Assembly (NCBI RefSeq): GCF_051903065.1
Contig: NZ_CP178438.1
Length of the DNA: 64,000 nucleotides
Direction: 5' to 3' (one strand)
DNA from: Escherichia coli
GTDB lineage: Bacteria > Pseudomonadota > Gammaproteobacteria > Enterobacterales > Enterobacteriaceae
Shown piece after piece: positions 347-17,951 of the stretch. The translations under genes and the position numbers were made by a program. How positions within the stretch are numbered: the first letter of the stretch is position 1; the number at the start of each line of letters is the position of its first letter. The notes below the pieces were generated by a model. The model was not told the DNA's origin, made no database searches, and saw only the letters and a list, made by a program, of their open reading frames with translations.

Positions 347-3300
347 TTATATCTGCCCGCCTACACCTTTAAACTTCTCAATAAACGCGACGATCTTCTG
401 GAAAACCGTCTGTTTTTTCGTCTTATATTGCGGATTTAACGGACTGAGTTTTGGCAATGTCTCGTTTAATTCCGTGCCATTTTCGGTTGCGTATTCGCGT
501 TTTAAAGACGTGCGAATATAGCGTTTCGCCGCCTCTTCATTGAGATTTTCTTCTTTGATCAATGCTGCTGCTTCACGTTGCTGTTCGCGTTGAGCAAAGG
601 TAAAAAACGCGTCAATGATGCTGGCTTTATCCGGCAAATCATCCAGGTTCGTTTGCTGAATAAAATCGACCACCAATCCTTCTTTGGCACGGTTCCCAAG
701 GCTTGAACGAATTAAGCGTTTGACCTCTTCGGTCATTTCGCCCTTACCTTTGTTTTGTCTGTTGTGTTCGAAAATCAGTCCAAGGATATAATCCAGGTTT
801 ATTTCCTGAGACTTCAGCAAATCGACCTCAAAAACCACGTCATCCCAGTCGGTGGTTGATTTTTCTTTTTTGTCAGCTTCTTTCTCACGGCGCTGCCAGT
901 CACGAATATCGTTATAGGCTGAACGGTAATCCTGAATCTTGCGATCAGCAGGGAGACGAATCGTTTGTAATTCAGCGAACTTTTCATCATCCACATAATG
1001 TTCTGCTTTGAATTTTTCTACCGCAACAGGATCGCTAAGATCGATTTGTTGCAGGGCTTTCAGCATGGCAAATTCATCATAGTTTTGCAGGATGTTCTCG
1101 GCACGCAGGTATTCACCAAACAGTTTTACGAAGTCTTTCTTCTCTTTTTCACTTTCAATATTGGCAGGGTCAGGGAACCGTTGTTCCAGTTCTGAAACTA
1201 CTGCCATAAAGCCGCGTTTAGCTTCACCAGTGGCAGCATCAGTAAAGCCTTCCATATACTCTGCATAACTCTTTTCTAACACCACATTTTTGGTATTTTT
1301 ATCACCAAACAGCGTTATGGCATCAATGGTTGAGCGTTCCAGATCCCGGAAAGTGACGATGTTACCGAAGGTTTTAGTGGCGTTATAAATGCGGTTGGTG
1401 CGGGAAAATGCCTGCATCAGGCCGTGAAAACGCAAGTTTTTATCGACGAATAGCGTGTTCAATGTTGGAGCATCGAAGCCGGTTAAAAACATCCCCACGA
1501 CAATTAACAGATCGATATCTTGATTTTTAACCCGTTGGGCTAAATCACGATAGTAGTTCTGAAAACCGTTACTGTCGGTGCTGAAGTTAGTTTTAAAATA
1601 GCTGTTATACTCACGAATTGCAGCGTCAAGAAACTCTTTAGCACTGCTGTCCATTGCGCTGGTATCAAAAGTTTCATCGGAAATTTCACCAATGGCATTT
1701 TGCTCTTCATTGGCGGCAAAGGAGAAGATTGTCGCAACACGCAGCGGTTTATAAGTAGCCGATTTATTAGCTGCTTCCTCTTGTAACCGTTTAAACGTAG
1801 CGTAATAGGCTTTCGCGGCATCCACGCTACTCACTGCCAGCATGGCATTAAAGCCTTTGGAACTTGGGAAAGTACGGTGGGTCTTCTGGCGGAAGTTATT
1901 CAGAATATATTGCGTAATTTCCTGTATACGCATGGGATGAAGAAACGCCTGCTGATTTTCAGCCGCACTCAGTTTTTTCTCGTCGGTTTCTGTCTCTAAA
2001 GACTTAAACTGTGGCCGCACATCGTTGTAGTCCACCTTGAATTTGAGCACTTTTTCATCACGAATCGCATCGGTAATCACATATGAATGCAATTCACGAC
2101 CAAATACGCTGGCGGTCGTTTCTGAGCCTAAAGCGTTTTCCGGGAAAATAGGGGTACCGGTAAAACCAAACTGATAATAGCGTTTGAATTTCTTCTTCAG
2201 ATTTTTCTGCGCTTCTCCAAACTGGCTGCGGTGACATTCATCAAATATAAACACCACTTGCTGATTGTATACAGGCAGGTCGCTTTCTGCTTTCATCAGG
2301 TTATTAAGTTTCTGAATAGTGGTGACGATAATTTTGTTATCGTCCTTATCCAGATTTCGTTTAAGACCTGCTGTATTTTCCGAGCCGTTAACACTATCTG
2401 GCGAAAAACGCTGATATTCCTTCATGGTCTGGTAATCGAGGTCTTTCCTGTCGACCACAAAGAAGACTTTATCAATAAAGTCCAGTTCTGTTGCCAGACG
2501 TGCGGCTTTAAAGCTGGTCAGGGTTTTACCAGAACCGGTTGTGTGCCAGATAAAGCCACCGCTTTCGGGGGTAGACCAGTTTTTCGCTTTATAGGAGCTG
2601 TTGATTTTCCATAAGATACGCTCAGTGGCGGCAATCTGGTACGGTCGCATCACTAGTAGCGTTTGGCTAATATCGAACACGCTGTAGTTCACTAAGACAT
2701 TAAGCAGAGTATGTTTCTGGAAAAAGGTAGCGGTAAAGTCTTTGAGGTCTTTAATCAGCGTGTTGTCTGATTTCGCCCAATTCATGGTGAAATCAAAACT
2801 GTTTTTATCGCGCTTTGTGGTGTTGGCAAAATAACGGGTATCGGTGCCGTTAGAAATGACAAACAGTTGCAGATACTTAAACAGGGAATTTTCGCTGTTA
2901 AAACTCTCTTTACTGTAACGATGTATTTGGTTGAAAGCCTCACGAATCGCCACGCCGCGCTTTTTCAGTTCGATTTGTACCAGTGGTAAGCCATTAACCA
3001 GGATCGTGACGTCATAACGGTTAGCATGAGAACCCGCCTGTTCAAACTGCTGGATAATCTGCACCTTATTGCGCATGAGATTCTTTTTATCTATCAGATA
3101 GATATTTTCAAGACGCCCGTCATCAAAAATAAAGTCGCAGATATAGTCGATATGAATTTTACGGGTTTTATCCAGGATGCCATCGCTGGGGTTGTCCAGA
3201 TACTGCTCCGTGAAACGCCGCCACTCGCTGTCATTAAACACCACACCATTGAGGTTCTGAAGCTGTTCCCGAACATTGGACAGCATCGCCGACTGTGATT

Positions 3301-3463
3301 TTACCGAAATAAATTCATAGCCCTGATTCCGCAGGTCCTGAATCAGTTCCCGTTCCAGGTCCGATTCGCTCTGGTAGCTGTCGCCTGTTTGCTCAGCTTT
3401 GATGTACTTATCAAGGACGATAAAGTTATTGGATTCAGCAATGGTGTGTGTTTGATGAGTCAT
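347..3463 (-). CDS. hsdR: Type I restriction enzyme R subunit (HsdR), type IC / EcoR124I-like, 1038 aa
   Basis: ORF-track protein starts [14 protein letters not shown] and has the same length (1038 aa) as EcoR124I HsdR as I recall it; DEAD-box helicase motifs (TGSGKT, DECH) present. Confidence 0.9.
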
Positions 3464-3491
3464 AGCGCATCCTTTGTGCCGCCTGGCAAGG

Positions 3492-3521
3492 GCCGGAAGG
3501 GCGTTAAGAGTGACTTCCGGC
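3492..3521. promoter_or_regulatory. Perfect 8-bp inverted repeat (GCCGGAAG..14 nt..CTTCCGGC) in the hsdS-hsdR intergenic region; candidate regulatory element near the expected hsdR promoter
   Basis: Read directly from sequence. Type IC systems are described as having a separate promoter for hsdR; no T-tract, so not an obvious intrinsic terminator. Confidence 0.3.
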
Positions 3522-3584
3522 GCGTAAAAAATAGTCTATATACAGACCGGGTGTTAAGGTGGCCCGGTCGGTAGCAATGGTCAA

Positions 3585-4865
3585 TTAGTTACTGATAGTT
3601 TCAGGTTTGGGAAAACTGAACAGTAAATCACGATAGTACTCGTATTGTTTCTGGCGCAACTCGATTTCACGCGGGAGGCCTTCGGTGATGGAGTTTGTCA
3701 GAGTGTCGAATTTATCGAGTATTGCGACGATACGAGCTTGTTCCTTAAGTGATTTTTCGTGATCTTTAGGATATGGAACCGGAATCATAATTTTTGAAAA
3801 ACCATTAATGAGTAGTGTATTAACTTTTGTTCTGGCTACATACTTTGCTTTTTCAGAAATAAACGAATCGGTTTGCATGTAATAGGAAATAAATTTTGGA
3901 TTCAAAGAATGTCGAAAAGCATAACAGTGATCATGAATAGCGATATCGTCATCCCCAAGCCATGCCACTGCTTTACCAACGTCTTCTACAGTCTCCCCCA
4001 CGTCAGTTATCACGACATCTCCATGTTTGGCATAGCGTAATGACGCTGCCATATCAGCTCTAACCTGTGATAACGAATGAGTTGTGTAAACACCATATCG
4101 TGTATATATCTCACCATAATGGATTACACTGATACCACCATCTTCTACATAATCTGCTTTAGTAAAACGTTTTCCACGAATAAACTCACCAATTTCCCCC
4201 AAAGTCTTCCACTCAACCTCACCCTCTTTAAAACTCAACAACTGGTCGCGATAGTAGTTGTACTGTTTTTTACGCATGGTAAGCTCTGCTGTAAGCTCTG
4301 CTGTAAGCTCAGTAAATTTATCCAGAATCCGAACGATTTCAGACTGGATGGCAAGGGATTTTTCCGGATTGCCCGGGCAGGGGATGGGGATGAGTAGTTT
4401 TGACATCAATGCATTTGAGCTTAGATTCGGCTGTGCTCCGCCCCCTGCAAGGATATAAATAGTCTCTGTATTTAACAATAAAAAATGGTATAAATAATTA
4501 TTGTTTAGAATATTTTCTTTGGGTATAAATTTCCCAACACGTTGGTTAAGATAACATTTTATTCCTTTTTTATAAATTCCCACTTTTCCTGTAGTGGCAC
4601 CTGACATTGCAATCAATATATTTCCCATAGATACCTCAAAGGAGGATAAATCTTCCTTGTAATCATTTAGTGAAAAGTATTTCACCTCATCTAAGTCAAC
4701 ATTAAACCCATCTATATTTGTGATTCTAACTATCGGTAACCCAGTTTCTTTAAATAAGCTGCTTTTAAATGCAAATCCATTTTTAAAATCACAAACATCC
4801 TTCAGGGTTTTCCACTCAACCTCAACCCCATCCAGCAATTTTTCCAGATAACTCAACTCGCTCAT
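3585..4865 (-). CDS. hsdS: Type I R-M specificity subunit (HsdS), type IC, 426 aa, with central TAEL repeat
   Basis: Conserved type IC central and C-terminal regions ([49 protein letters not shown]); start ATG overlaps the hsdM stop (ATGA), indicating translational coupling. Confidence 0.9.
4279..4311 (-). repeat. 12-bp tandem repeat in hsdS encoding (TAEL)2 plus a partial copy; spacer-length determinant of type IC HsdS
   Basis: Plus strand GTAAGCTCTGCT x2 then GTAAGCTCA; the minus strand reads ACT GAG CTT ACA GCA GAG CTT ACA GCA GAG CTT, i.e. [11 protein letters not shown]. Confidence 0.85.
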
Positions 4866-6416
4866 TTCTGCACCCCGCAGCCTTCAATTTCAGCCACAAT
4901 CGCATCAATATCTTTGCGCAACTGGTCGATTTTGCTGACCGTGGTTTTCAGCTCAGCATTCAGCTCACCGATATCGATAATTTCGCGAGTATCTTTCGCT
5001 TCAACATAGCTGCTCACCGACAGGTTATAGTCATTCGCTACAACGGCTTCAAACGCGACAGATTTCGCCAGATGAGCAACATCTTCCTTGCTGGCAAATA
5101 CCTGCATAATCTGTTCGATATGGGCATCGGTCAGGATATTGTTGTTGGTCTCTTTTTTGAACAGTTCGCTGGCGTCAATAAACTGAACTTTGGTATCGGT
5201 TTTATGTTTAGACAGCACCAGAATATTGACGGCAATAGTGGTGCCAAAGAACAGGTTCGGTGCCAGTGAAATCACGGTTTCGACATAGTTATTATCGACC
5301 AGATACTGACGGATTTTCTGCTCCGCGCCGCCACGGTAAAAAATACCCGGGAAGCAAACAATCGCAGCGCGACCTTTGGCCGAAAGATAGTTCAGCGCAT
5401 GTAGTACAAAGGCGAAGTCAGCTTTGGATTTGGGGGCCAGGACGCCAGCCGGGGCAAAACGTTCATCGTTAATCAGCGTCGGGTCATCGCTGCCAATCCA
5501 TTTCACCGAATACGGCGGGTTAGAAACGATGGCATCAAACGGTTTTTCATCTCTGAAGTGCGGCTCAGTCAGTGTATTGCCCAACTTGATATCAAACTTG
5601 TCGTAGTTGATGTTGTGCAAAAACATGTTCATACGCGCCAGGTTATAGGTCGTATGGTTGATCTCCTGACCAAAAAAGCCTTCTTCGATGATATGGTCAT
5701 CAAACTGCTTTTTCGCCTGCAACAACAGCGAACCGGAACCTGCGGCCGGGTCGTAGATTTTGTTAACGTGGGTCTGCCCGTGCATAGCCAGTTGTGCAAT
5801 CAGCTTAGAGACGTGCTGCGGTGTAAAGAACTCGCCGCCTGACTTACCAGCATTCGCGGCATAGTTAGAAATCAGGAACTCATAGGCATCGCCGAACAGG
5901 TCAATCTGATGTTCGTTAAAGTCGCCAAGCTTTAACCCTTCAACCCCTTTCAGAACCGCAGCCAGGCGGGCATTTTTATCCTTAACGGTGTTACCCAGGC
6001 GGTTACTGGTGGTATCGAAATCAGCAAACAAACCTTTGATGTCAGCTTCTGAAGGGTAACCGTAAGCAGAACTTTCGATAGCAACGAAGATGCTGTTTAA
6101 ATCTGCATTCAGTCTGTCATTGGTATTTGCTTTCGCAGCTACGTTGCAGAAAAGCTGACTTGGGTAGATGAAGTAGCCTTTGGTTTTGATGGCATCGTCT
6201 TTAATGTCATCAGTTATTACGCTGTCATCCAGTTTCGCATAACAGATACTGTCATCACCGGCTTCAATATAGCTGGAAAAATTTTCGCTGATAAAACGGT
6301 AGAAAAGCGCGCCCAGAACGTATTGCTTAAAGTCCCATCCATCGACCGAACCTCTGACATCGTTAGCAATTTGCCAGATCTGGCGATGAAGCTCCGCGCT
6401 GCTGAAGACTGGTCAT
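4862..6416 (-). pseudogene. hsdM: Type IC R-M methyltransferase subunit (HsdM) with an N-terminal frameshift (apparent 2-bp deletion in a CGCGCG run at about codon 8)
   Basis: ATG at 6416 with an AAGGA ribosome-binding site reads [17 protein letters not shown] then stop. The frame encoding the conserved body ([16 protein letters not shown]...) has an in-frame TGA at 6413-6415 and no ATG/GTG/TTG start until the TTG at 6031, which is why the ORF track shows only 389 aa. Confidence 0.7.
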
Positions 6417-6722
6417 TTTTTATCCTTTGAATGTGTTTTTAACGTCGGCTTTTGCCGGGATTTTACCGGAAGTTGTTTGGTTTTTCAGATTTGTATGACG
6501 GTGAGGAGGGGATTCAGTACCAGATTGTTAGTGCATCTTACTCAGCATTCACCGCTTGAGTCAGGAGGCTACTTTATATGCCCATCGCCCATCCGTAGGT
6601 GATCAGATAATTTATTGCGAGTCACCTTCCCGATTTTCAATCTCATTATTTACCCAATCTTTCACCAGTGGATAATTCGTCTGCTACTAACGGCGAGTGT
6701 ATTTTTTTACGGATGAAAGATT

Positions 6723-7556
6723 ATGCAAACAGAAGCTGAAGTCTTAACCGATCATAACGAACTAATTTGCTCGACCAGTATTGAGCGTATCGTCACAGGA
6801 CGTGATAGTGCACTGAACCAGATAGCGGCGTTAATCCAAAAGCTTGATGATATCTCCAGCCTGACATCCAGTATTGGCGGTGATGTGGCTGGAACCTGGG
6901 CAATGCGTAATGGATATGCCTTTGATTGCTGGCTGATGCAGCCAACCGACAAAGCGATGCCGGTGATCACCCGAAATATCGATCGCAGTATCTGGCGCGA
7001 TCTCATGCTGAAGTCCGGTATGTTGACTCTGATGGATGCCGAAGCTCGCAGTCAGTGGGCAAAGAATCTGGAGGAGGGCGATCTCCCGGCGATTAGCGAA
7101 GCCAACATCCTGAGTACCTTTGAACAACTTCACCACAATAAGCAGGATGTTTTCGAACGTGGGATTATCAATGTATTTAAGGGATTGAGCTGGGATTACA
7201 AAACCAATAATCCCTGTTATTTCGGTAAGAAGATTATCGTTAACAATCTGGTGAAGCATGACCGATGGGGCTACAGCCTGCACTGGGGCTGGCGGCGAGA
7301 TCAGCTTGCCGATCTGGAACGGATGTTCTATCTGCTGGATGGGAAGGTCATTCCCGATAACCGGCATGATGTTGCGATTCGGTTTATGGACTTCGTTAGT
7401 GCTCACCCGCATGAGCAGGTATTTAATGACGATTTATTTGTCATCCGCTATTACCAGAAAGGCAGTGGGCATATCACATTCAAGCGACTGGATCTGGTGG
7501 ATAAGATGAATGACATTGTGGCGAAGCACTATCCGTCAGCGTTATCAGCAAAATGA
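6723..7556 (+). CDS. Hypothetical protein, 277 aa, no catalytic motif recognised; divergently oriented from the hsd operon, upstream of the McrBC-like pair
   Basis: Clean ORF with ATG start and an AT-rich upstream region; I could not assign a family by eye. Confidence 0.6.
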   Translation: MQTEAEVLTDHNELICSTSIERIVTGRDSALNQIAALIQKLDDISSLTSSIGGDVAGTWAMRNGYAFDCWLMQPTDKAMPVITRNIDRSIWRDLMLKSGMLTLMDAEARSQWAKNLEEGDLPAISEANILSTFEQLHHNKQDVFERGIINVFKGLSWDYKTNNPCYFGKKIIVNNLVKHDRWGYSLHWGWRRDQLADLERMFYLLDGKVIPDNRHDVAIRFMDFVSAHPHEQVFNDDLFVIRYYQKGSGHITFKRLDLVDKMNDIVAKHYPSALSAK

Positions 7557-7914
7557 ATGTCGTATGTTTGCTGTCAATAATGTCGTTACTGGAACCCTCT
7601 GAATTTCGGCATATCCATTTACTGGAAACGATGTTTACCTAAAAACAGTTGATTCCCTATGCAACTAGAAACCTCACACAGGTTGAAAAACGAGTAGCGA
7701 TTTTACGTATGAAAGAATGCTATAGCCTTCTCTGAGAGCCATCAACATCATGCGTTTTGCAGTTAAGTCATCAGATAAATGTGGTGGCTCCAGGGCAGAA
7801 GGTAATTTCAGGATGAAAGTTATTTTTTTTATCACAAAATTTAACATTTTTGAGATTAATCCGATAAGATAAGGCTATCCCAATTTCCCTCCCCCCTACA
7901 TATTGGATTAAGAG

Positions 7915-9969
7915 ATGGTTCAGGATTCATCAGCATTAGCCCCCTTCTTTCGTGCTCAAATTGAAAAAAATAATCAATACAATTCAGTTTGGGGCAAACA
8001 CTACCGCCAGCTTGTAGAACAGATTCAGGCCGAAAAACCAAACTTTTCTGAAGCCACGATTCGGCAGGTATGGTATGAACGTGACAATGGTGTCTCCAGC
8101 CTGATGCAAGGAGGGATGTCATTGGTTGAATTTGAAAATGCACAAAAAGACCTTCTAACGCTCACCCGTCAGATAGCAGAAGAGTGTACACAAGAAAATT
8201 ATAATCGGGTCATTGAACGCCTTATCAAACTTAAAGCGGACGGAGTATTAAATAAGGTATATAGGGCTCTTTGTAATCGTGCTTTTGCAGCAATATACCC
8301 ATCAAAAATTAGCAGTGTCGTGAATGTTAATAATTTTTTTAGTTGCTACAATTATTGCAACAACCATTTCCAGCTAGGTCTTTCCGGAGAACGGGAGTGG
8401 CTGGCTCGCAATGTTGATCTTAAAGAAACGCTAAATCGTGCGCTGGGTGATGATATCGACCCTATTGAGCTGAATATGTCACTTTGGCATCTCTATGCGT
8501 ATGAAATTCAGGATAAAAATGCTATCGGTTTAGTTGGAAGCGAAAGTGCTTTACAAGAAAATGAGCAAGAAGATGATGTTATAAGTTCGCCATTGCCTAA
8601 AAACACAATTCTCTATGGCCCGCCAGGTACAGGTAAAACATATCGTACTATTGAGCTTGCTGTACAAATTTGTGATCCGATCGCTTACTCCCTGCAGGAG
8701 GGTAAGGATGAGAGTGAAAAACGTCGCGAGTTGAAAAAGATTTATGATCAGCTTATCAAAGAAAATCGAGTGCGTTTTATCACCTTTCATCAGAGCTTTG
8801 GTTATGAAGAGTTTATTGAAGGTTTAAGAGCTGAGACTACTGATGACGGTAATGTAAAATACGAAATAAAGGCAGGTATTTTTAAGCAGATATGCGAGGA
8901 TGCCGCCTTTGGTCATGCTGGTGCGCAGGAAATGTTAGATAGCGCACTTACTCGCCTACAAGAACGTTTATCTGAAGGTGAAAATATCACGCTGGAAACA
9001 CAACAGGGTAAGGCCTTCCAGCTGACGTATAAAAGTCAAACCAACTTTGGAATTTTCCCGTCACAATCGAAAAAAGAGGATTTAGGACAGGGTTACAATG
9101 CCTATTTGAAGGATATTCGGCAAGTTTATCAGGATCCACGAGCAAAAGTACATAATCCATCTTATGTACGCAGTATCCTTAACTATTTAATTAATCAACG
9201 TTATCTGCCTCTGAATACTCAGAGCGTAGCTTCAGAAAAAAAGGAAAACTATGTTCTCATTATTGATGAAATAAATCGGGGTAATATTTCAAAAATTTTC
9301 GGTGAACTAATTACCCTTATTGAGCCATCTAAACGGGCTGGTGAGCCAGAATCGCTTAGCGTATTGCTGCCATACTCTTCCACTCCATTTAGTGTGCCGA
9401 ATAACCTTTATTTAATTGGTACCATGAACACTGCTGATCATTCGCTTACTGCACTTGATACTGCACTACGTCGCAGATTTGATTTTGAAGCGATGCTGCC
9501 AGATATTACTGTTCTGAAAGATACTGTCATTAAAGGTATTGATCTGCCTCGTCTATTGCAGACGCTTAACGATCGCATCCAGGTTTTATACGATAGAGAA
9601 CATATGCTGGGGCATGCTTTTTTTATCCCTGTTGTGCAGGCAAAAGAAGACGAAGCTCTGGCATTTGAAAGATTCAAACGGATTATGCGAAATAAGATAC
9701 TACCATTGCTGGAAGAATATTTTTACAATGACTGGCAAAAAATTCGCATGGTACTGGCTGATAACCAAAAAGAGGAAGCACCAGATCTTCAATTTGTACG
9801 TGAGGTGAAATACCAGAAAAAGTATGCCGATCTCTTTGGTGATAACGGAACAGATGACTTGGGAACCAGTTTTCACCTGGCAGCAGAGGATGACAACGTT
9901 TGGGACAATCCAATCGCCTGGCAGCAAATTTATGCACCTCAAAAAGAAAAACGCAGGAGTGCGGAATGA
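7915..9969 (+). CDS. McrB-family AAA+ GTPase (type IV restriction-like), 684 aa, with a non-canonical N-terminal domain of about 230 aa
   Basis: Motifs ILYGPPGTGKTY, FHQSFGYEEFIEG, IIDEINRGNISKIFGEL and GTMNTADHSLTALDTALRRRF parallel the EcoKI McrB GTPase motifs; residues 1-230 do not resemble the EcoKI McrB N-terminal 5mC reader as I recall it. Confidence 0.8.
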   Translation: MVQDSSALAPFFRAQIEKNNQYNSVWGKHYRQLVEQIQAEKPNFSEATIRQVWYERDNGVSSLMQGGMSLVEFENAQKDLLTLTRQIAEECTQENYNRVIERLIKLKADGVLNKVYRALCNRAFAAIYPSKISSVVNVNNFFSCYNYCNNHFQLGLSGEREWLARNVDLKETLNRALGDDIDPIELNMSLWHLYAYEIQDKNAIGLVGSESALQENEQEDDVISSPLPKNTILYGPPGTGKTYRTIELAVQICDPIAYSLQEGKDESEKRRELKKIYDQLIKENRVRFITFHQSFGYEEFIEGLRAETTDDGNVKYEIKAGIFKQICEDAAFGHAGAQEMLDSALTRLQERLSEGENITLETQQGKAFQLTYKSQTNFGIFPSQSKKEDLGQGYNAYLKDIRQVYQDPRAKVHNPSYVRSILNYLINQRYLPLNTQSVASEKKENYVLIIDEINRGNISKIFGELITLIEPSKRAGEPESLSVLLPYSSTPFSVPNNLYLIGTMNTADHSLTALDTALRRRFDFEAMLPDITVLKDTVIKGIDLPRLLQTLNDRIQVLYDREHMLGHAFFIPVVQAKEDEALAFERFKRIMRNKILPLLEEYFYNDWQKIRMVLADNQKEEAPDLQFVREVKYQKKYADLFGDNGTDDLGTSFHLAAEDDNVWDNPIAWQQIYAPQKEKRRSAE

Positions 9970-11276
9970 AATCTTCCAGTCATTTCACTGTGTTCGAATA
10001 CGGGCATTTAGTGAGTGAGGAAGGTGATGCCCGTATAAATAATGCGGTAGTGCTACCTGCAGACCTATTTAAATGGCTTGAGCTGCGCTGTCTGAAAGAC
10101 GATGCTGATAATACTCATCGTTTGCTCACCCTTAGCAGCCGGAATGGAGTAAAAACGCTGCAGGTAAAAAACTATGCAGGAGTAATCTCACTGCCAGGGG
10201 GGCGATTTCTCGAAATCCTGCCTAAAACAGGTCAGGATAATGAGGATACTGTTCGTCAACAAATACTGATGATGTTACGTACGTTAAAATCATTTCGTCA
10301 TATTGCCTCCTCTGAATCTGGCGTCAAAATATCTAAAATGCCTCTGATGGACATCTTTATTCAACAATTTATAGAGAGCGTGCGTAAGATTGTGCAGAGA
10401 GGGTTAAAACGTGACTATTTACGTCAGGAAGATAATCTTCCATGGATAAAAGGAAGATTACGGATCTCTGCACAATTAAGCAAAAACTGTATTAGGCGGG
10501 ATCTTTTTCAGGTGGAGTATGACGAGTACAGCGTCAATCGTCTGGAAAACCGGATACTCAAAACTGCAATCAATAAGATTAGTCGCCAGACCAGTAATCC
10601 ACAATTATTACAGCAGATAACACAGCTGCAGTTTCACTTTGAAAATATCACGTCAGTTCATGATGCTTATATAGCTTTCGAGCAGTTACACTTTGATAGA
10701 CACATGCATCACTATGAGCAAGCATTAGCGTGGGCGAAGATGATTTTATTGGGCGATTCTCCACACTGTATGTATGGGGATGTTAATGCTTTTTCACTGC
10801 TTTTCCCGATGGAGGCTGTTTTTGAATCTTTTGTGACGACATGGATGCGTTATCGTTATTATGATAAATGGCGAGTGGACGCACAGGTAAGTTCAAAAAA
10901 TCTGATTAGTTATAACGGTAAAGCTTTATTTAAGCTGCGGCCTGATATTTGTTTACGGCCTCGTAAAAGTACTACTGGTTCAGTTATTACCTGTGATATT
11001 AAATGGAAGATAGTAAATGGCAGAAAGGACAGTCTTGAACAATCTCAAGCCGATCTCTACCAAATGCTTGCCTATGGATTGAATTACCAGGAGGGGGAAG
11101 GTGATATGATTTTGATATACCCCTATCATAACGGATTTAATCAGCCATCTCCTCATCCTTATGAATTTAGCCATCAGAAGGAAAATAGGTTACGTTTATG
11201 GGTTGTACCTTTCTTTATTGGCGAGAGTTTACAGACATCAGAGTTGCATTTTCCTAGTGGGGCTGAATTTATTTAG
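9966..11276 (+). CDS. McrC-like PD-(D/E)xK nuclease partner, about 436 aa, translationally coupled to the McrB-like gene
   Basis: ATG overlaps the McrB-like stop (ATGA at 9966-9969); C-terminal PDICLRP...ITCDIKWK fits a PD..D-x-K nuclease motif. The ORF-track start at 9900 lies inside the upstream gene and is probably too far 5'. Confidence 0.75.
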   Translation: MKSSSHFTVFEYGHLVSEEGDARINNAVVLPADLFKWLELRCLKDDADNTHRLLTLSSRNGVKTLQVKNYAGVISLPGGRFLEILPKTGQDNEDTVRQQILMMLRTLKSFRHIASSESGVKISKMPLMDIFIQQFIESVRKIVQRGLKRDYLRQEDNLPWIKGRLRISAQLSKNCIRRDLFQVEYDEYSVNRLENRILKTAINKISRQTSNPQLLQQITQLQFHFENITSVHDAYIAFEQLHFDRHMHHYEQALAWAKMILLGDSPHCMYGDVNAFSLLFPMEAVFESFVTTWMRYRYYDKWRVDAQVSSKNLISYNGKALFKLRPDICLRPRKSTTGSVITCDIKWKIVNGRKDSLEQSQADLYQMLAYGLNYQEGEGDMILIYPYHNGFNQPSPHPYEFSHQKENRLRLWVVPFFIGESLQTSELHFPSGAEFI

Positions 11277-11338
11277 TATTTGTAGGCTATCTCTTTATAC
11301 AATTTATTTGTCTATTTGTATGCACAAGATAGCCTACC

Positions 11339-12211
11339 TCACCCCCTAAAAACCTCTTTCCGATGCCACTCCACAAACCCCTCAAAAGGGTAATTTTTAC
11401 GCACCTGTGGCAACGCAATAGTTTTCCCGTCAAAATCCCAGAATAATCTCTCAACGATCCCTCCGCCGTTTACCGCATCCGAGACCAGTATCCGCATATT
11501 TTCATCCAGGCCAATCGATCCTTTATCAAAGGCTTTATGGTGTATTGCGCAAAGTGCCAGACCATTGGGGATTTCACAAGGGCCGCCGTGCTGTTTCCAT
11601 TTTATATGCGCCGCTTCCAGCGCGACGGTGGTGTCGTCGTGGCGCATATTAAAGCCACATATCGCGCACTGGTATTTATAAGCGCGTAATACATTTTTGC
11701 GAAATAACGGGTCGCGCTGTTTACGGATTTGCTGGAGATCAAAACCCAGCTCGTCAGCAATTTCTTCCTGAATACTCTCGGTGAAGTGCGCTTCGAGTAT
11801 CTGTTGCGCCAGAGTATTGATGAGTTTTTTATTGCCGGTTACCAGGGCGTAGTGCTGTTCATCGAAACCGCCTGCAACGTGGTATTCGTTCAGTTCCTTC
11901 ACTGGCGGTTGTCGGCTGCTCCCTGCTGTTGAGCAACGCTCGGCATTGTGTAATTGCCAGAATCCGTCGCCTTGTAATCGCCAGAACGGCATATCAGGTC
12001 GGTACTGTGAACGCTGTGGCCCAAAACGTTCCAGTAAACTGTGCAGAGGTTCGTAGATTTCCGAGCCATAATCGAAAAGGCGCGGATGTCCATGCAGGTA
12101 TCCCGCTAATACGTATAGCAATAACAATGGCTTATGCGGCGCGCGCTGTTCACCCTTATGCCAGATTTTTATATTGGCAATTGCCTGCTGTAGCGATTTA
12201 CTGGAAGCCAT
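11339..12211 (-). CDS. HNH-family nuclease (C-terminal CAICG...HIKW...CAIHH motif) with an uncharacterised N-terminal domain; candidate modification-dependent restriction enzyme
   Basis: Cys/His HNH motifs in the C-terminal third; start chosen at ATG 12211 (AGGGA ribosome-binding site, protein begins MASSKSL); the ORF track extends to a TTG at 12268. Confidence 0.65.
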   Translation of the reverse strand: MASSKSLQQAIANIKIWHKGEQRAPHKPLLLLYVLAGYLHGHPRLFDYGSEIYEPLHSLLERFGPQRSQYRPDMPFWRLQGDGFWQLHNAERCSTAGSSRQPPVKELNEYHVAGGFDEQHYALVTGNKKLINTLAQQILEAHFTESIQEEIADELGFDLQQIRKQRDPLFRKNVLRAYKYQCAICGFNMRHDDTTVALEAAHIKWKQHGGPCEIPNGLALCAIHHKAFDKGSIGLDENMRILVSDAVNGGGIVERLFWDFDGKTIALPQVRKNYPFEGFVEWHRKEVFRG

Positions 12212-12347
12212 TGATATCCCTGGCAGTGAAATAATTGCGATCATGCTCGCAAATTTTCTGCTGTTCAAGCCTGCAAGTGAAGATATATTACTTTGATCTC
12301 ATTTGTTTTTTTGCTGCTTGTTCTGAGAACGTATAAGGACATTCTCT

Positions 12348-12998
12348 ATGAATAAACTCCCCGATCATCTTCCGCGGCGGTATATTATCGAAGCTATTCA
12401 TTTATGGGATGCGGGAGAAACTCATCAGTTCCAGCCTGCACGGTTGTATGAGATTGAATATCATGGCCGACGTTACCCCTCGAAGGCGATTGCTGGCATC
12501 GCAGCGACATTGATGACGGGGACGCAATTTACCCCTGCGGATTTCACCGGCGGAATAAAATCTAAATGCGTCAAGCTACTTATAGATCAGGGATTTCATA
12601 TTCATCAGGATAAAGCCGCTGCGGCTCCCATAGCCGATGTTCTGTTCCCGGATGAGTTGCCGTCGCAGGGGACCTACGTTGAAGGTGCGGCGATAAAGGT
12701 GACGGTAAACAGCTATGAACGCGATAAAAACGCTCGCGAGAAAGCAGTCGAATATCACGGATGCCAGTGCAACGTATGCGGCGTTGATCTGGTGAAGATC
12801 TATGGCGATATCGCTGAGGGCTTTATCCATATGCATCACCTGGTGCCGCTTTCAGCCATTAAAGAGGATTACCTGCTGGATCCAGTTAATGATTTACTTC
12901 CTGTGTGCCCTAATTGCCATGCGATGTTGCACCGACGCAAACCACCGTTTACGCCGGAGGAGTTAAAAGCGTTGATGGATGCGAATAAATCAAATTAA
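12348..12998 (+). CDS. HNH nuclease, 216 aa (C-terminal CQCNVCG...HMHHLVP...CPNCH, McrA-like HNH) with a distinct N-terminal domain
   Basis: HNH zinc-finger-type motif resembling the E. coli McrA C-terminus as recalled; transcribed divergently from the neighbouring HNH gene. Confidence 0.7.
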   Translation: MNKLPDHLPRRYIIEAIHLWDAGETHQFQPARLYEIEYHGRRYPSKAIAGIAATLMTGTQFTPADFTGGIKSKCVKLLIDQGFHIHQDKAAAAPIADVLFPDELPSQGTYVEGAAIKVTVNSYERDKNAREKAVEYHGCQCNVCGVDLVKIYGDIAEGFIHMHHLVPLSAIKEDYLLDPVNDLLPVCPNCHAMLHRRKPPFTPEELKALMDANKSN

Positions 12999-13005
12999 TG
13001 AACGC

Positions 13006-13986
13006 TCACCTTTCGCGCCAAAACTGCAAAATTGCTTCTACAAACTTGTCAGAAATAATCCCCCGACGGGCTGCCGCGCTGAAATGACTGCTTCGCAGTG
13101 CCGTCGTCCAGTTCTCCGGTGACCGGTACGCTGAACCGTAATATCCCGTGCTTAAATCGTCCGGATCTTCATCAGGCGCGTTCGTCAGTCCTCTTTCACC
13201 TTGTTGCTGGAAGTCGACGAAAATAATATTGGCTAAAACATTATTTTGATAATTGCCATAAATAGCTTCATACGCATGAGGGAAATTTTCTTTCCAGTAC
13301 CAGGTGGTATCGCCGCAAAACCAGGGCGCATCAGTAATATTATTAAGCTGAGAATGGTATTGTTTTAGATCCCTACGAAAGGCTTCAACCATATGATTAA
13401 AGTGTTGAGGGTGTGACGCGTAGTCACTGGTCATTAAGTCAAATTCGCCTTGCATCCAGCATACGCCGAGGAATTTGTTCTGCGGATTTTTTGCCAATGC
13501 GGCTCGCGTTCTGCTGACTAAATCCTGGTATAGCGGAGTATCCGTTCCCCAACGACAAGCATCATGGCTGGCTCCGTGCCGTTCTGAATATGTCCCCTCG
13601 CTGCCCGCGGTAAAAGCCGATCCGCCACGGCAACATGGAACGATGAGAACCCCTGCGTTATCAGGAATAAAGGGCAGTAATTTCCGTGCAATATGCAGTG
13701 CCTGGCCAATGGTGCCGTACTGTGTTTGATGATTCGTTGCCAGAGGATGGTGATAACCCTGCATATCCTGAACATCGTGTGGGCAGTGAGTCAGTGGAAT
13801 AATGTCGTTAAAGTGACATGACGGGCCTCCGGGATGCGTATGCGCAAATCTCGCTAATTGTTTAATTCTGGGATGAGGCGCATCTTCCCTGTCCGGTAAT
13901 GGCAGTCCTTCGCCATACGCCATGGCATTAGACTGACCAGCAACGGTAAGAACATAGTAATAATCGGGCGATATTATTGCGTCCAT
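13006..13986 (-). CDS. nanS: N-acetyl-9-O-acetylneuraminate esterase NanS (YjhS), 326 aa
   Basis: Length and N-terminus (MDAIISPDYYYVLTVAGQSNAMAYGE, SGNH-type) match K-12 NanS; position upstream of nanM-nanC. Confidence 0.85.
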   Translation of the reverse strand: MDAIISPDYYYVLTVAGQSNAMAYGEGLPLPDREDAPHPRIKQLARFAHTHPGGPSCHFNDIIPLTHCPHDVQDMQGYHHPLATNHQTQYGTIGQALHIARKLLPFIPDNAGVLIVPCCRGGSAFTAGSEGTYSERHGASHDACRWGTDTPLYQDLVSRTRAALAKNPQNKFLGVCWMQGEFDLMTSDYASHPQHFNHMVEAFRRDLKQYHSQLNNITDAPWFCGDTTWYWKENFPHAYEAIYGNYQNNVLANIIFVDFQQQGERGLTNAPDEDPDDLSTGYYGSAYRSPENWTTALRSSHFSAAARRGIISDKFVEAILQFWRER

Positions 13987-14049
13987 ATAATTTTCGCGTA
14001 ATTGAAATGATAAATTGATAGCAGGGCCCTTTACTGGGGCCCTGAAGCG

Positions 14050-15156
14050 TTAGTTTTGTACTGTAACTTTATTATCCTTCACAGAGATCAAAACTGAATC
14101 CGTCACCGCTTTGCCGCCTGCAGATTCACCGCCAATAATCAATAGACTATTATTCCAGGGCAATGATACTCCGTAGGCCCGACCTTGCGATAATTCACCA
14201 GATTTATCCCATTTCCCGTTATGCCAAAGATGAATATCAGTGCTATATGATTTTTTCAGGCCTTCATGCGCATAGTTCTTACCGTTCTGGTAATTTTCTC
14301 GTGAACCTTTGAATCCGGCCCCTCCGGCAAATATAAGAGAATCATTGCTTATCCCCGCAAAACCGCCAGCGACGCCATCTGGTGATGAGACGGGAGCAAG
14401 CTTATTCCATTTTAAATTATTACCGGTGAAATCAAGTTCAAATACGGCATCCGTTCGCAATCCGGGTTTGGCTTCGCCATTAATAAGCCAGGTTTTATCA
14501 CCTTTATTCACAACCGCCGCACCAGCCGTTCCGTACCAGGGAGATTCGCCAGCGTAACTCCATTGCTGTGTTGAGGGATCAAAAGACAACAGAAACTTAT
14601 TGAAGAAATAATCTTCTGCTTTTTTGTCAAAATAATGGGCATTGATCTTGTCTATAGTTGCTGAATCTTTTCCAGCCTCGTTGAGATCTTCAAAATAGCC
14701 ATTGAAGATATTCTGGTTAACACCGCCAGTAACATAAGCCTTGCCGTTGTGTACAAAAGTCACATGACCCGCCATGCCCATCGGTGCATGCGACATCAAT
14801 TTAACCCAGCTATTGGTTTTGGGGTTGTATTTGTGTACGTCATTAAATACCTGAGTCAAGCCCTTGCTATTTTTGCCAATGCCGCCAAACACATACAGAT
14901 TGCCATCAATAAATGCAGAGGTTGCTTGATCTCTTGGTCCGCCAGGGAATGCAGCTAACGCTGTCCATTTTTTATCTTTGGCCTGTGTATCCAGCTTGTA
15001 CCATGCCGTACCTGCGCTACCTAAACCAATGTAGACAGTGTCGTTATCAATTGCTCCGGTACCACTTTTAAATGGCACAGGAGTTTCCGGTAATACAGAC
15101 GCGTTTGCGGCAAATGAAGCCATCATGATAGCAAGCGCCGTTATTGTTTTATTCAT
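14050..15156 (-). CDS. nanM: N-acetylneuraminate mutarotase NanM (YjhT), Kelch-repeat periplasmic protein, 368 aa
   Basis: Signal peptide MNKTITALAIMMASFAANA and Kelch-like repeats; start set at the internal ATG to give the 368-aa K-12 length. Confidence 0.85.
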   Translation of the reverse strand: MNKTITALAIMMASFAANASVLPETPVPFKSGTGAIDNDTVYIGLGSAGTAWYKLDTQAKDKKWTALAAFPGGPRDQATSAFIDGNLYVFGGIGKNSKGLTQVFNDVHKYNPKTNSWVKLMSHAPMGMAGHVTFVHNGKAYVTGGVNQNIFNGYFEDLNEAGKDSATIDKINAHYFDKKAEDYFFNKFLLSFDPSTQQWSYAGESPWYGTAGAAVVNKGDKTWLINGEAKPGLRTDAVFELDFTGNNLKWNKLAPVSSPDGVAGGFAGISNDSLIFAGGAGFKGSRENYQNGKNYAHEGLKKSYSTDIHLWHNGKWDKSGELSQGRAYGVSLPWNNSLLIIGGESAGGKAVTDSVLISVKDNKVTVQN

Positions 15157-15175
15157 TGTGACTGTCTCCTGTCTA

Positions 15176-15892
15176 CTACAGTTTAAATGACACACCAATG
15201 CGATAACTGTTTTCCGATAAATTATCTCTGCCGTTGTAAACACCCTGACGGTCAAGGTAGTCATATTCTATGTATGGCGTAATATCCGGCGTCATATGGT
15301 ATTGTAGAACAAATGCATTTTCCGTCGCCCATTTCTTATGGTTTGCATAGCGATAATCGTTCTGTTTGCTGTATAGCGTCGTTTGCCATGCGAAGGTGAA
15401 ATCACTATTAATATGGTAAGTGACATATCCATCCCAACGATGAACGTTATCACGAGACATATCACCGGATAAGTCTTGTTGTCGGTAAGCTTTCCAGTCG
15501 TAACGATAGCGAATGCCAAAATTAAGATCTTTTGTCGCGTCCCAGGACAGTTTTACGTAGGGTCCGTAGCGTGTGCCGTTGCTGCTAAAATGCGTTAACA
15601 TTCCCGGGCGCACCGTCCATTGATCATCAAGTTTAATTGCGTAATTAACTTCAACCTGAACATCATTGAGTGCGGCATTTTCCTTTTTATTATCATGAAT
15701 GGTATTCCAGGTATTACTTTCCATACTTGCCCACCATCCATTTTGCCATCCCTCACTGACTTTGAGTCGAGTCTCATAGGCGTGGCTTCCACTACGATAT
15801 CCACCACGTACGTCCAGTGTCGCAGCCTGAGAAATTAATGGGGACGAAAAGCACAGTAATAATACGCCAGAAAGTATTTTAGCCTTTTTCAT
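15176..15892 (-). CDS. nanC: N-acetylneuraminic acid outer-membrane channel NanC (YjhA)
   Basis: Signal peptide MKKAKILSGVLLLCFSSPLISQA and a beta-barrel-like protein ending in F; conserved position next to fimB. Confidence 0.85.
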   Translation of the reverse strand: MKKAKILSGVLLLCFSSPLISQAATLDVRGGYRSGSHAYETRLKVSEGWQNGWWASMESNTWNTIHDNKKENAALNDVQVEVNYAIKLDDQWTVRPGMLTHFSSNGTRYGPYVKLSWDATKDLNFGIRYRYDWKAYRQQDLSGDMSRDNVHRWDGYVTYHINSDFTFAWQTTLYSKQNDYRYANHKKWATENAFVLQYHMTPDITPYIEYDYLDRQGVYNGRDNLSENSYRIGVSFKL

Positions 15893-16309
15893 AAATTTCA
15901 CTCATTTGTAGGATACAGAAAGCAATACAAAGCCCGCATAAACAATTAGCATTTATGTTGTGTAATATTTTTTTGCCAGGCTTATAGTGTCTTTGGCAAC
16001 CGGTAGCTGTATTTTATATTTTTTTGTATAAGGTCTCCTGTGAAAAATCTCTTTTCACATTATTTAAATAAACAGAGATCCAGATTAAATACCTGAGTAT
16101 AAAATCTCTTCTGATGTTTAATTGATTTGAATGTTCGTAAGCTATATCACTTACTCAATCCATTTTACCCAGAGTCATAAAATAGAGTGTCTGTTGATCT
16201 CATTTTCATATTCCTTTCAGACTGAAGTGCGTTTTCATCACCCGATGAGAAAGAACTGAAGCGATGTTTGCCATAGATTGCAAGATGCCCTGTCTCATTG
16301 TCTATCGTG

Positions 16310-16340
16310 GTGCACCTTTATACCTGTTATACCAGATCAA
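16310..16340. promoter_or_regulatory. Probable NanR operator (two TATACC hexamers on the opposite strand) with adjacent Dam GATC site, in the nanC-fimB intergenic region
   Basis: CTTTATACCTGTTATACCAGATC read directly; NanR is known to bind GGTATA repeats and to regulate nanC and fimB from this region. Confidence 0.5.
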
Positions 16341-17348
16341 AAATCACGCAATCCATACAACAAAACCAGATTTGCAATTCGTGTCACAAAATATGTCGAT
16401 CTTTTTCTAAGAAGAAGATGCCATGTGAAGCCAGACGAACACTTGCGGTGGTCTTCAAAAACTAAAGATCTTCTTTTAACTATATGTTTTATAAATAATT
16501 TATTTAGAGTCTAAACAAGGGAAGCTTTGCAAGCTAACTCAGTGAGCTTGGTGAAAATAAGTGTTTACCCGCCATCAGGCTGAGCATAATTCTCATCATG
16601 AAATATGTTTCCTGGTTTGTGGCTTGTAACTGGTCACTTCTGAAGTCGATCTGGAGAGGCTTGTTGATGTTGGTGTTTTCAGGATGATGTTTCACTTAGT
16701 TTGTTTGCCGTATCGCCCGGCGAATGGCTGTGATTGAGGAAGGTTTAAGTCGCAGTGACCAAAGCCATATTTACCAGCGAATGTAGATGAAAAAATCGTC
16801 TCCTGCGTTCCCCCATATCTCCAGGATAAAAAGGAATGTAACAATCTCATGGCTTAAACTGACGAACCAGCCAGGAATAATCGCTAGGGACCTAAGAATT
16901 AGCTTGATAATAGCCACTAAGAAATTACTGTGTTCCATGAAATAGCCATTTTGTGGCAAATGGAGTTGACTAATAATGTCATATGTGAGACGGCTAGTTG
17001 AACGAATATTAAATTTTGCTGAATTTTTTATGTTGATTTTACTTGTTACAGAACATATCACATGATATATAGATAAGATTAGTTGCATTAATGATGAGGG
17101 TTATTATTAGATTCGTATCAGATTGATAAATATATAAAAGTATATAGCATGCAAGAGCATAGCGTTTGTATGGCAACGTTATTATAATTAACTGTTGCTA
17201 CCCCATTTAAGTTCACTCAGAAGAACTGGTCCACTTACGTTAGTTATTAAGCAAACGTTCGCTTTTATAAACATAATCAGGATAAAAATGTTGGATTATT
17301 GCTAACCCAGCACAGCTAGTGCGCGTCTGTAATTATAAGGGAAAAACG

Positions 17349-17951
17349 ATGAAGAATAAGGCTGATAACAAAAAAAGGAACTTCCTGACCCATAGTGAAA
17401 TCGAATCACTCCTTAAAGCAGCAAATACCGGGCCTCATGCAGCACGTAATTATTGTCTGACTTTGCTTTGTTTTATTCATGGTTTCCGGGCGAGTGAAAT
17501 TTGTCGATTGAGGATTTCGGATATTGATCTTAAGGCAAAGTGTATATATATCCATCGATTAAAAAAAGGCTTTTCAACAACGCACCCGCTATTGAACAAA
17601 GAAGTTCAGGCTTTAAAAAACTGGTTAAGTATCCGTACTTCGTACCCGCATGCTGAGAGCGAATGGGTATTTTTATCGCGTAAGGGGAATCCGCTTTCTC
17701 GGCAACAGTTTTACCATATTATCTCGACTTCCGGTGGTAATGCCGGGTTGTCACTGGAGATTCATCCGCACATGTTACGCCATTCGTGTGGTTTTGCTTT
17801 GGCGAATATGGGAATAGATACGCGGCTTATCCAGGATTATCTTGGGCATCGCAATATTCGTCATACTGTCTGGTATACCGCCAGCAATGCAGGGCGTTTT
17901 TACGGCATCTGGGATAGGGCCAGAGGACGACAGCGTCACGCTGTTTTATAG
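17349..17951 (+). CDS. fimB: Type 1 fimbriae recombinase FimB (tyrosine recombinase), 200 aa
   Basis: MKNKADNKKRNFLTHSEIESLL... matches K-12 FimB; the C-terminal RHxxxxY tyrosine-recombinase region is present. Confidence 0.95.
   Translation: MKNKADNKKRNFLTHSEIESLLKAANTGPHAARNYCLTLLCFIHGFRASEICRLRISDIDLKAKCIYIHRLKKGFSTTHPLLNKEVQALKNWLSIRTSYPHAESEWVFLSRKGNPLSRQQFYHIISTSGGNAGLSLEIHPHMLRHSCGFALANMGIDTRLIQDYLGHRNIRHTVWYTASNAGRFYGIWDRARGRQRHAVL

Follow-up and report, generated by a model that had tools for sequence, protein, structure and literature searches.

A probable mosaic of modification-dependent restriction modules at the nanS-proximal end of the leuX island of Escherichia coli

In a 64,000-nucleotide stretch of Escherichia coli contig NZ_CP178438.1 (hereafter the window), five genes lie at positions 6723-12998, between a type I restriction-modification (R-M) operon and nanS. 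They encode, in order, a DUF4942-domain protein, McrB and McrC family proteins, and two HNH nucleases, of which the first carries an N-terminal SBD and the second a ScoMcrA_N domain. This segment is very probably a mosaic located at the end of the leuX island nearest to nanS, composed of three autonomous modification-dependent restriction modules and one backbone gene of the island. Four of the genes belong to three known type IV / type IIM enzyme classes, and the EcoWI class has been characterised biochemically (PMC7461809). All components of the islet are of known kinds and are annotated as such in RefSeq, where the five are named DUF4942 domain-containing protein, McrB family protein, McrC family protein, phosphorothioated DNA-binding restriction endonuclease and HNH endonuclease. 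The fusion seen in McrB is likewise already in print, and only the putative sensor domain of the McrBC pair is unusual.

A first-pass annotation of this DNA, made from the letters alone, had described a defence islet in which an NTPase and three nucleases sit beside a type I R-M system. This description is supported here. Its further suggestion of one new or composite system is not, as the genes represent three known kinds of restriction enzyme plus an island gene, which assort independently. Independent assortment is evident from 5,426 complete E. coli genomes, counted by places that span 80% or more of each query: the whole 7.1 kb occurs in 220 genomes, mcrBC in 285, the HNH pair in 325 and the DUF4942 gene in 432. 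Several strains illustrate the partial combinations. In C1 and APEC E956, both HNH genes lie next to a CP4-like island, and McrBC is absent. M-17 and PSJ-16 keep McrBC and the SBD-HNH gene together with only a C-terminal stub of the 216-aa (ScoMcrA_N-HNH) gene, and 23CRST051, which lacks an adjacent R-M operon, keeps an intact McrBC and the SBD-HNH gene beside truncated copies of the DUF4942 and 216-aa genes. Outside E. coli, relatives of this McrB adjoin McrC and nothing else recurs in their neighbourhoods. Within the window itself, the five genes form three orientation blocks, or transcription units, which are separated by spacers of 358 and 136 bp. The partial combinations, the McrC-only neighbourhoods and the three blocks together lead to the reading of three autonomous modules plus one backbone gene.

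The five open reading frames (ORFs) first listed were confirmed, with the start codons of two corrected (to ATG 9966 for mcrC and to ATG 12211 for the SBD-HNH gene), and the family calls of a McrB-like GTPase, a McrC-like nuclease and two HNH nucleases were upheld by Pfam, PDB and NCBIfam matches. The gene set matches no multi-gene system model in PADLOC-DB 2.0, in keeping with the earlier failure to place the combination in a named system; what stands in the place of one named system is, however, the three enzyme kinds and the island gene. In the same database, McrB, the SBD-HNH protein and the 216-aa HNH protein match only generic REase_II, HNH or mREase_IV models, and the DUF4942 protein and McrC have no match at all. 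Promoter and terminator scans of the region performed at chance level and were not used as evidence.

The McrBC pair and its N-terminal domain

The McrB family protein (7915-9969, + strand; 684 aa) comprises an N-terminal domain (7915-8568, aa 1-218) followed by an AAA+ core and lid (8569-9969). The McrC family protein (9966-11276, + strand; 436 aa) is the PD-(D/E)xK nuclease subunit. An ORF list had begun mcrC at TTG 9900; the real start is ATG 9966, which is preceded by AGGAG 9 nt upstream and overlaps the TGA stop codon of mcrB as ATGA. The AAA+ core matches McrB of Thermococcus gammatolerans (PDB 6ut3) at 1.8e-52 and E. coli McrB (6hz4) at 5.7e-30 and is, as judged from sequence, much closer to the former than to the K-12 protein. 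It harbours a Walker A motif (GPPGTGKT at 235), IIDEINR at 449 (with the Walker B residues DE at 451-452), MNTAD at 504 and RRRF at 519, and the Walker A, Walker B and NTAD positions are nearly invariant across 67 relatives. McrC matches the Pfam McrBC family (PF10117) at 1e-98, with RPD at 325 and D-I-K at 344-346. Both proteins score far under the respective NCBIfam cut-offs (117 bits against 637 for the McrB equivalog and 107 against 338 for McrC) and are therefore considered members of these families rather than K-12 orthologues.

The overlapping gene pair, the AAA+ GTPase motifs and lid, and the PD-(D/E)xK centre of McrC are all shared with the McrBC enzymes of K-12 and T. gammatolerans. 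The differences lie elsewhere. McrC has approximately 100 additional N-terminal residues in comparison with K-12 McrC, and only the AAA+ part of the window McrB aligns by sequence with the full-length T. gammatolerans chain (6ut5). The genomic positions also differ, as the mcrBC genes of K-12 are located in the hsd-mrr-mcrBC region, whereas the window pair is located between leuX and nanS. The stretch between Walker A and Walker B is enlarged in the window McrB; a novel insert was considered here and rejected, since T. gammatolerans McrB has a similar, shorter insert.

It is the reader domain that defines a McrBC enzyme. Where K-12 McrB has an MrcB_N (PF12102) reader of 5-methylcytosine, the window McrB has an all-alpha domain, which is probably a sensor of DNA modification. 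The non-canonical N-terminus pointed out in the first-pass annotation is thus real: residues 1-218 match neither MrcB_N nor any other Pfam model, the newest precomputed annotations list only AAA_5 and McrB_lid, and a PDB sequence search with a profile of the domain gave nothing meaningful. Word-index searches with the single sequence or with a profile of the N-terminus returned only 10-11 fragments. An exhaustive HMMER search of 1.84 billion representatives yielded 127 relatives of the domain, most of them McrB-like proteins. MrcB_N is present in 2 of the 67 McrB relatives, as an extra domain, and many relatives carry a further domain ahead of the helical one, although few of these are recognisable (MrcB_N, EVE, Mrr_N and DUF3427).

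Around 20 of the relatives have no Walker A motif. Most of these possess instead a C-terminal segment of ~140 residues with the motif D...YEIK...GQLLEY and weak matches to PDDEXK_9 and LmuA-nuclease models, and one (P0237) terminates in an HNH_2 domain. The helical domain is therefore joined to three kinds of effector, namely the McrB AAA+ core, a PD-(D/E)xK nuclease and HNH_2, which makes it a mobile module, like the readers of modification-dependent nucleases. Single-chain fusions of the helical domain to PD-(D/E)xK include P0238, P0229, P0225, P0216, P0188, P0232, P0244 and others, some with an added N-terminal Mrr_N, EVE or DUF3427 domain; these proteins are probably relatives of the END-Mag type of nuclease.

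A preprint on the END nucleases (Yee et al. 2025) puts forward a catalytically dead domain of the EndoIII/Ogg type, 'iEndoIII', as the sensor of many different hypermodified bases (PMC12191111). According to the preprint, the sensor further occurs in fusions with a NucS-like PD-DExK nuclease and with a McrB-like GTPase; the nuclease forms alone were tested (PMC12191111). The partners of the window domain family include the McrB AAA+ and PD-(D/E)xK partners that the preprint lists, to which the family adds HNH_2. On balance, we slightly favour the view that the window McrB is one of these iEndoIII-McrB fusions. More tentative is the fuller proposal that the McrBC pair is a GTP-driven counterpart of END, in which a dead HhH-GPD domain reads hypermodified phage bases (glucosyl-hydroxymethylcytosine, deazaguanines and others) rather than 5-methylcytosine (5mC). 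The END enzymes tested are single-chain PLD nucleases with a C-terminal sensor, whereas the window domain stands at the N-terminus of a GTPase that depends on McrC, and no PLD fusion is found among the 127 relatives.

The likeness of the domain is greatest, though weak, to an inactivated HhH-GPD glycosylase. Its best compact fold matches are Ogg2/EndoIII proteins, and these matches are weak; Foldseek against the PDB gave no significant match, and hhalign of the domain profile against an approximate sequence of E. coli EndoIII returned a probability of 0.1%. Pfam scans of the 67 McrB relatives and 22 nuclease-fusion relatives detected no HhH-GPD or OGG model. In 47 sequences, no conserved Asp or Lys is present in or after the putative helix-hairpin-helix (residues 93-142), a correspondence drawn by eye and not from a structural alignment.

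If the window pair acts as the E. coli and Thermococcus McrBC structures suggest, a McrB hexamer would bind GTP, contact DNA via its N-terminal domain and recruit McrC, whose PD-(D/E)xK nuclease would cut upon stalling of translocating complexes. The N-terminal domain would flip out or capture non-canonical bases, by analogy with the proposal for iEndoIII, and so steer McrBC to hypermodified phage DNA.

Two points weigh against a sensor of the END kind. The likeness to the END sensor is drawn from the description in the preprint and not from END sequences, and the extra N-terminal readers of some relatives (MrcB_N, EVE, Mrr_N, DUF3427) mean that the helical domain could itself be an adaptor. 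The corresponding alternative, which we regard as rather unlikely, gives the helical domain the part of an adaptor, structural or regulatory, and places target choice elsewhere, for example in the McrC extension or the AAA+ insert, or else takes unmodified DNA as the target. In its favour are the weak fold matches, the lack of a sequence link to glycosylases, the position of the domain behind another N-terminal domain in many relatives (with few recognisable readers, such as MrcB_N, EVE and Mrr_N) and the N-terminal extension of McrC itself. Set against it is the reassortment of the domain with three kinds of effector, the behaviour of a reader, and the sensor reading is accordingly preferred. 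The mcrBC genes are carried by ~5% of complete E. coli genomes, and the 285 that hold this McrBC with a reader not modelled in Pfam provide an easy test case for the McrB fusion.

The two HNH enzymes

Downstream of mcrC lie the two divergently transcribed HNH genes. Each has its own N-terminal domain, as first described, SBD in the one and ScoMcrA_N in the other, and they are separated by a spacer of 136 bp (12212-12347; 37.5% GC). The first (11339-12211, - strand; 290 aa) had been listed as an ORF of 11339-12268, with the ATG at 12211, which RefSeq uses, as the likely start. On sequence grounds, its product is an EcoWI-family phosphorothioate (PT)-dependent restriction endonuclease. It scores 439.2 bits against the NCBIfam model NF045808 (cut-off 180), covering profile positions 2-284 of 284, and differs from WP_000168564.1 at 6 of 290 residues. 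The SBD (residues 5-142) matches ScoMcrA (5zmo) at 2.3e-08 and the HNH part matches TagI; the PADLOC HNH model matches at 1.4e-24, the order is N-terminal SBD then HNH with no SRA, and homologues are annotated with PF26340 and PF13391. The calculated mass of 33.3 kDa compares with 33.4 kDa reported for EcoWI, and the motifs KPLLLL and PFWRL, which the EcoWI paper describes as conserved, are both present (PMC7461809).

EcoWI is a dimer that alone restricts GpsAAC/GpsTTC-modified plasmids in vivo and in vitro, cutting at N7/N6 (PMC7461809). The window protein shares with it the family model over the full length, the size, the domain order and the conserved SBD motifs. By homology to this characterised enzyme, it is predicted to cut DNA with phosphorothioate at GpsAAC/GpsTTC: it would bind the Rp-phosphorothioate in GAAC/GTTC and cut nearby. 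This specificity is assumed from the family model, size and motifs, as the EcoWI paper and its supplement give no sequence. In phage therapy and cloning, restriction of phosphorothioated and perhaps of hypermodified DNA is to be anticipated from strains carrying the islet.

The second HNH gene (12348-12998, + strand) encodes the 216-aa protein, which is probably a McrA-like type IV enzyme. Residues 29-93 of ScoMcrA (5zmm) match residues 24-87 of the query (E 1e-4 with the whole protein), PF26345 (ScoMcrA_N) is on record for a 94%-identical representative and for homologues, and the HNH domain is of the McrA type, with Cys4-type zinc ligands and with invariant Cys and His ligands. The protein shares the head domain and the McrA-type HNH with ScoMcrA, whose order is head-SBD-SRA-HNH. 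It has room for two domains only and matches neither SBD nor SRA; lacking both, it is not an orthologue of ScoMcrA. EcoKMcrA possesses an N-terminal 5mC reader that the 216-aa protein lacks, which leaves the latter as a minimal head-HNH enzyme. It would select other modified DNA by means of its head domain and nick or cut it by means of the HNH domain. The authors of the ScoMcrA structure describe the head as a domain without known function (PMC6224610), flexibly attached and outside the dimer contacts (PMC6224610). A function for the ScoMcrA head has been lacking since that structure appeared in 2018, and the head-HNH protein is the simplest place to learn what the domain reads.

The HNH pair is the only place in the islet where a functional link between modules stays plausible. 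The same divergent pair, with a spacer of ~140-180 bp, is found in Citrobacter farmeri (beside type VI secretion genes), Klebsiella aerogenes and Klebsiella sp. R445 (beside Wadjet). In K. aerogenes (locus 2260-4636), Mrr_N-HNH, SBD-HNH and ScoMcrA_N-HNH genes stand in a row beside hsdR. An E. coli integrative and conjugative element (ICE) carries a 57%-identical ScoMcrA_N-HNH gene (6001-6654) and a separate SBD-HNH gene (10744-11616) 4 kb apart, so both enzyme types travel on a mobile element too. The pairing is, however, a trait of a mobile two-gene cassette in a single enterobacterial lineage and not of the whole family. Amongst species-representative genomes, 13 hold a ScoMcrA_N-HNH gene, which has an adjacent SBD-HNH gene in three (two Citrobacter, one Enterobacter), all at 64% identity or above to the window protein. 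The remaining 10 have no adjacent SBD-HNH gene, and these include Raoultella (67% identity) and all of the distant phyla. Solitary copies also occur in Pantoea, Sulfurovum and C. freundii.

One alternative takes the two genes as a functional 'split ScoMcrA' cassette, in which the 216-aa protein would act together with the SBD-HNH enzyme or control it, for instance by shared regulation from the 136-bp spacer, in a heteromer or as a back-up against anti-restriction. The pair does recur with differing neighbourhoods, in C. farmeri, K. aerogenes, Klebsiella sp. R445, two more Citrobacter species and Enterobacter sp. JUb54, and this recurrence across Citrobacter, Klebsiella and Enterobacter, which leaves room for a functional link, counts against full autonomy of the modules. 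Both paralogues also occur 4 kb apart on the E. coli ICE, and ScoMcrA unites ScoMcrA_N and SBD in one chain (PMC6224610). Nevertheless, the EcoWI dimer restricts PT-modified plasmids alone (PMC7461809), the ScoMcrA head, a domain of no known function, is flexibly attached and takes no part in dimer contacts (PMC6224610), and many E. coli retain the SBD-HNH gene with only a truncated 216-aa gene. In addition, ScoMcrA_N-HNH is solitary in most representatives, as well as in Pantoea, Sulfurovum and C. freundii, and pairing confined to one lineage (at least 64% identity) is equally expected of a mobile cassette of two independent genes. Given the one-lineage pairing and the stand-alone activity of EcoWI, the split ScoMcrA idea is rated as improbable, and two independent enzymes are preferred. 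A weaker addition to the END-type reading of McrBC is that the ScoMcrA_N domain could be a so far undescribed reader of modified DNA, moving together with EcoWI as a cassette of two genes.

Several further arrangements of these genes were observed. In Enterobacter sp. MGH 24 and C. portucalensis, the SBD-HNH gene is followed on the same strand by an HNH gene whose match to the query is confined to the HNH half. The genes of the E. coli ICE also include those for an integrase, AbiEi, TraI_2, ArdC and TraG, and its ScoMcrA_N-HNH protein is listed in 1,030 blocks of the assembly collection. The C. freundii locus (4001-4651, 7123-8651) has ScoMcrA_N-HNH on its own and lacks SBD-HNH, and ~2.5 kb away are dnd-associated genes, namely an Aminotran_5 gene, DNA_S_mod_dnd_assoc_4 and an SMC-like ATPase. 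This case fits the idea of an exclusion of PT-dependent SBD-HNH enzymes from PT-modifying hosts, in which the head-HNH enzyme would be tolerated.

The island gene, the junction and the defence hotspot

The first gene of the segment (6723-7556, + strand) is an intact ORF for a protein of 277 aa, which had been taken for an orphan. It belongs instead to the Pfam family DUF4942 (PF13708, 1.4e-68 over residues 83-271), and it has no match in PADLOC, NCBIfam or a PDB sequence search. The gene is a backbone gene, usually the terminal one, of CP4-57-like islands, and is orf56/L0010 of SRL PAI / LEE-type islands (PMC6980539). In S22EC, a DUF4942 gene of 88.5% nucleotide identity directly follows cbeA-cbtA in a CP4-57-like island that has no McrBC; this is its position in the CP4-57, SRL and LEE-type islands as well, whose genes belong to the same Pfam family. 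In the window the rest of this backbone is absent and the gene lies between hsdM and mcrB. The truncation of DUF4942 in 23CRST051 leaves McrBC intact, nothing ties the gene to any restriction module, and a restriction role for it is not supported. The domain also aligns with part of a phage 'DNA methyltransferase' family, PHROG phrog_6263 (2.5e-13); a methyltransferase function was considered and rejected, since only an accessory domain of the PHROG aligns and there is no catalytic domain.

On the left, the window begins with a junction of the leuX island, as was first proposed. Only the last 24 nt of leuX (99-122, + strand) are present, as an att-type repeat preceded by unrelated AT-rich sequence and with no whole tRNA, whereas NZ_CP028166 has the whole tRNA-Leu (leuX) at the equivalent place. 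A copy of the leuX 3' end without the whole tRNA marks an island junction, and positions 1-122 look like the distal att repeat of another leuX-integrated element, which would lie leftwards of the window. Next comes the type I R-M operon (hsdR 347-3463, hsdS 3585-4865 and hsdM 4862-6418, all on the - strand), and nanS (13006-13986, - strand) bounds the five-gene segment on its far side. The segment had been called AT-rich, and at 43.3% GC against 46.8% for the window it is so, though only moderately; mcrBC has 40.5% GC and the spacers 31-41%.

The neighbouring R-M operon may be inactive in this strain, as hsdM carries a frameshift. In comparison with NZ_CP028166, 2 bp are missing between window positions 6394 and 6395 in a short run of CG dinucleotides (CTCCGCGCGCTG in NZ_CP028166, CTCCGCGCTG in the window). 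The frame is shifted at approximately codon 8, and the longest ORF left is 389 aa in comparison with 518. The difference may reflect an inactivated R-M system, or else a sequencing error or slippage.

The segment had also been described as having no counterpart in K-12, which does not hold: K-12 MG1655 retains a frameshifted, truncated SBD-HNH remnant beside nanS, with yjhR on its other side (locus positions 8032-8237). Some match to the HNH-pair query is present in 4,890 of the 5,426 genomes. These two observations suggest that the HNH pair has long resided at the island end near nanS and has decayed in most lineages.

Decay of this kind raises the alternative that the whole cluster is decaying cargo and is non-functional in this strain, which we consider quite improbable. 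In its favour are the frameshift in the neighbouring hsdM, the truncation of the 216-aa HNH, DUF4942 or SBD-HNH genes in many strains, including K-12, and the closest complete genomes, identical at 100%, which have IS903B inside mcrB. The latter are two only, NZ_AP045789.1 and NZ_AP045800.1, and have a second copy of the element near the HNH genes. In the window, unlike these genomes, mcrB is uninterrupted; all five ORFs are full length with intact catalytic motifs and differ by only 4-12 residues from full-length RefSeq proteins. Functional modules are therefore preferred.

The mosaic reading has itself to accommodate the fact that the DUF4942, McrBC and HNH genes of E. coli are usually inherited as one block, which weighs against it. 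That the five genes form one composite system, in which the McrB NTPase drives or licenses McrC and both HNH nucleases with DUF4942 as sensor or regulator, is nonetheless highly improbable: the genes are contiguous, compact and co-inherited in the 220 genomes, and no named multi-gene system fits this NTPase with three nucleases, yet most partial combinations occur with the remaining ORFs intact, McrB relatives elsewhere have McrC only, EcoWI works alone (PMC7461809), and the genes are divided by orientation and by the 358-bp and 136-bp spacers into three transcription units.

On the mosaic reading, it is the accumulation of defence genes at this hotspot, and not joint action, that has brought the modules together. 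Overall, the region reveals no new system and is a defence hotspot of an ordinary sort. In E. coli C1 (locus 9779-17660), nanS is absent and nanM gives way to a frameshifted kelch-repeat fragment; directly downstream of the HNH pair stand instead a type II Zorya system (zorA2, zorB2, zorE), a large STY4851/ECs_5259-family gene and a DEAD/DEAH helicase gene. This replacement indicates that the site is an active defence hotspot.

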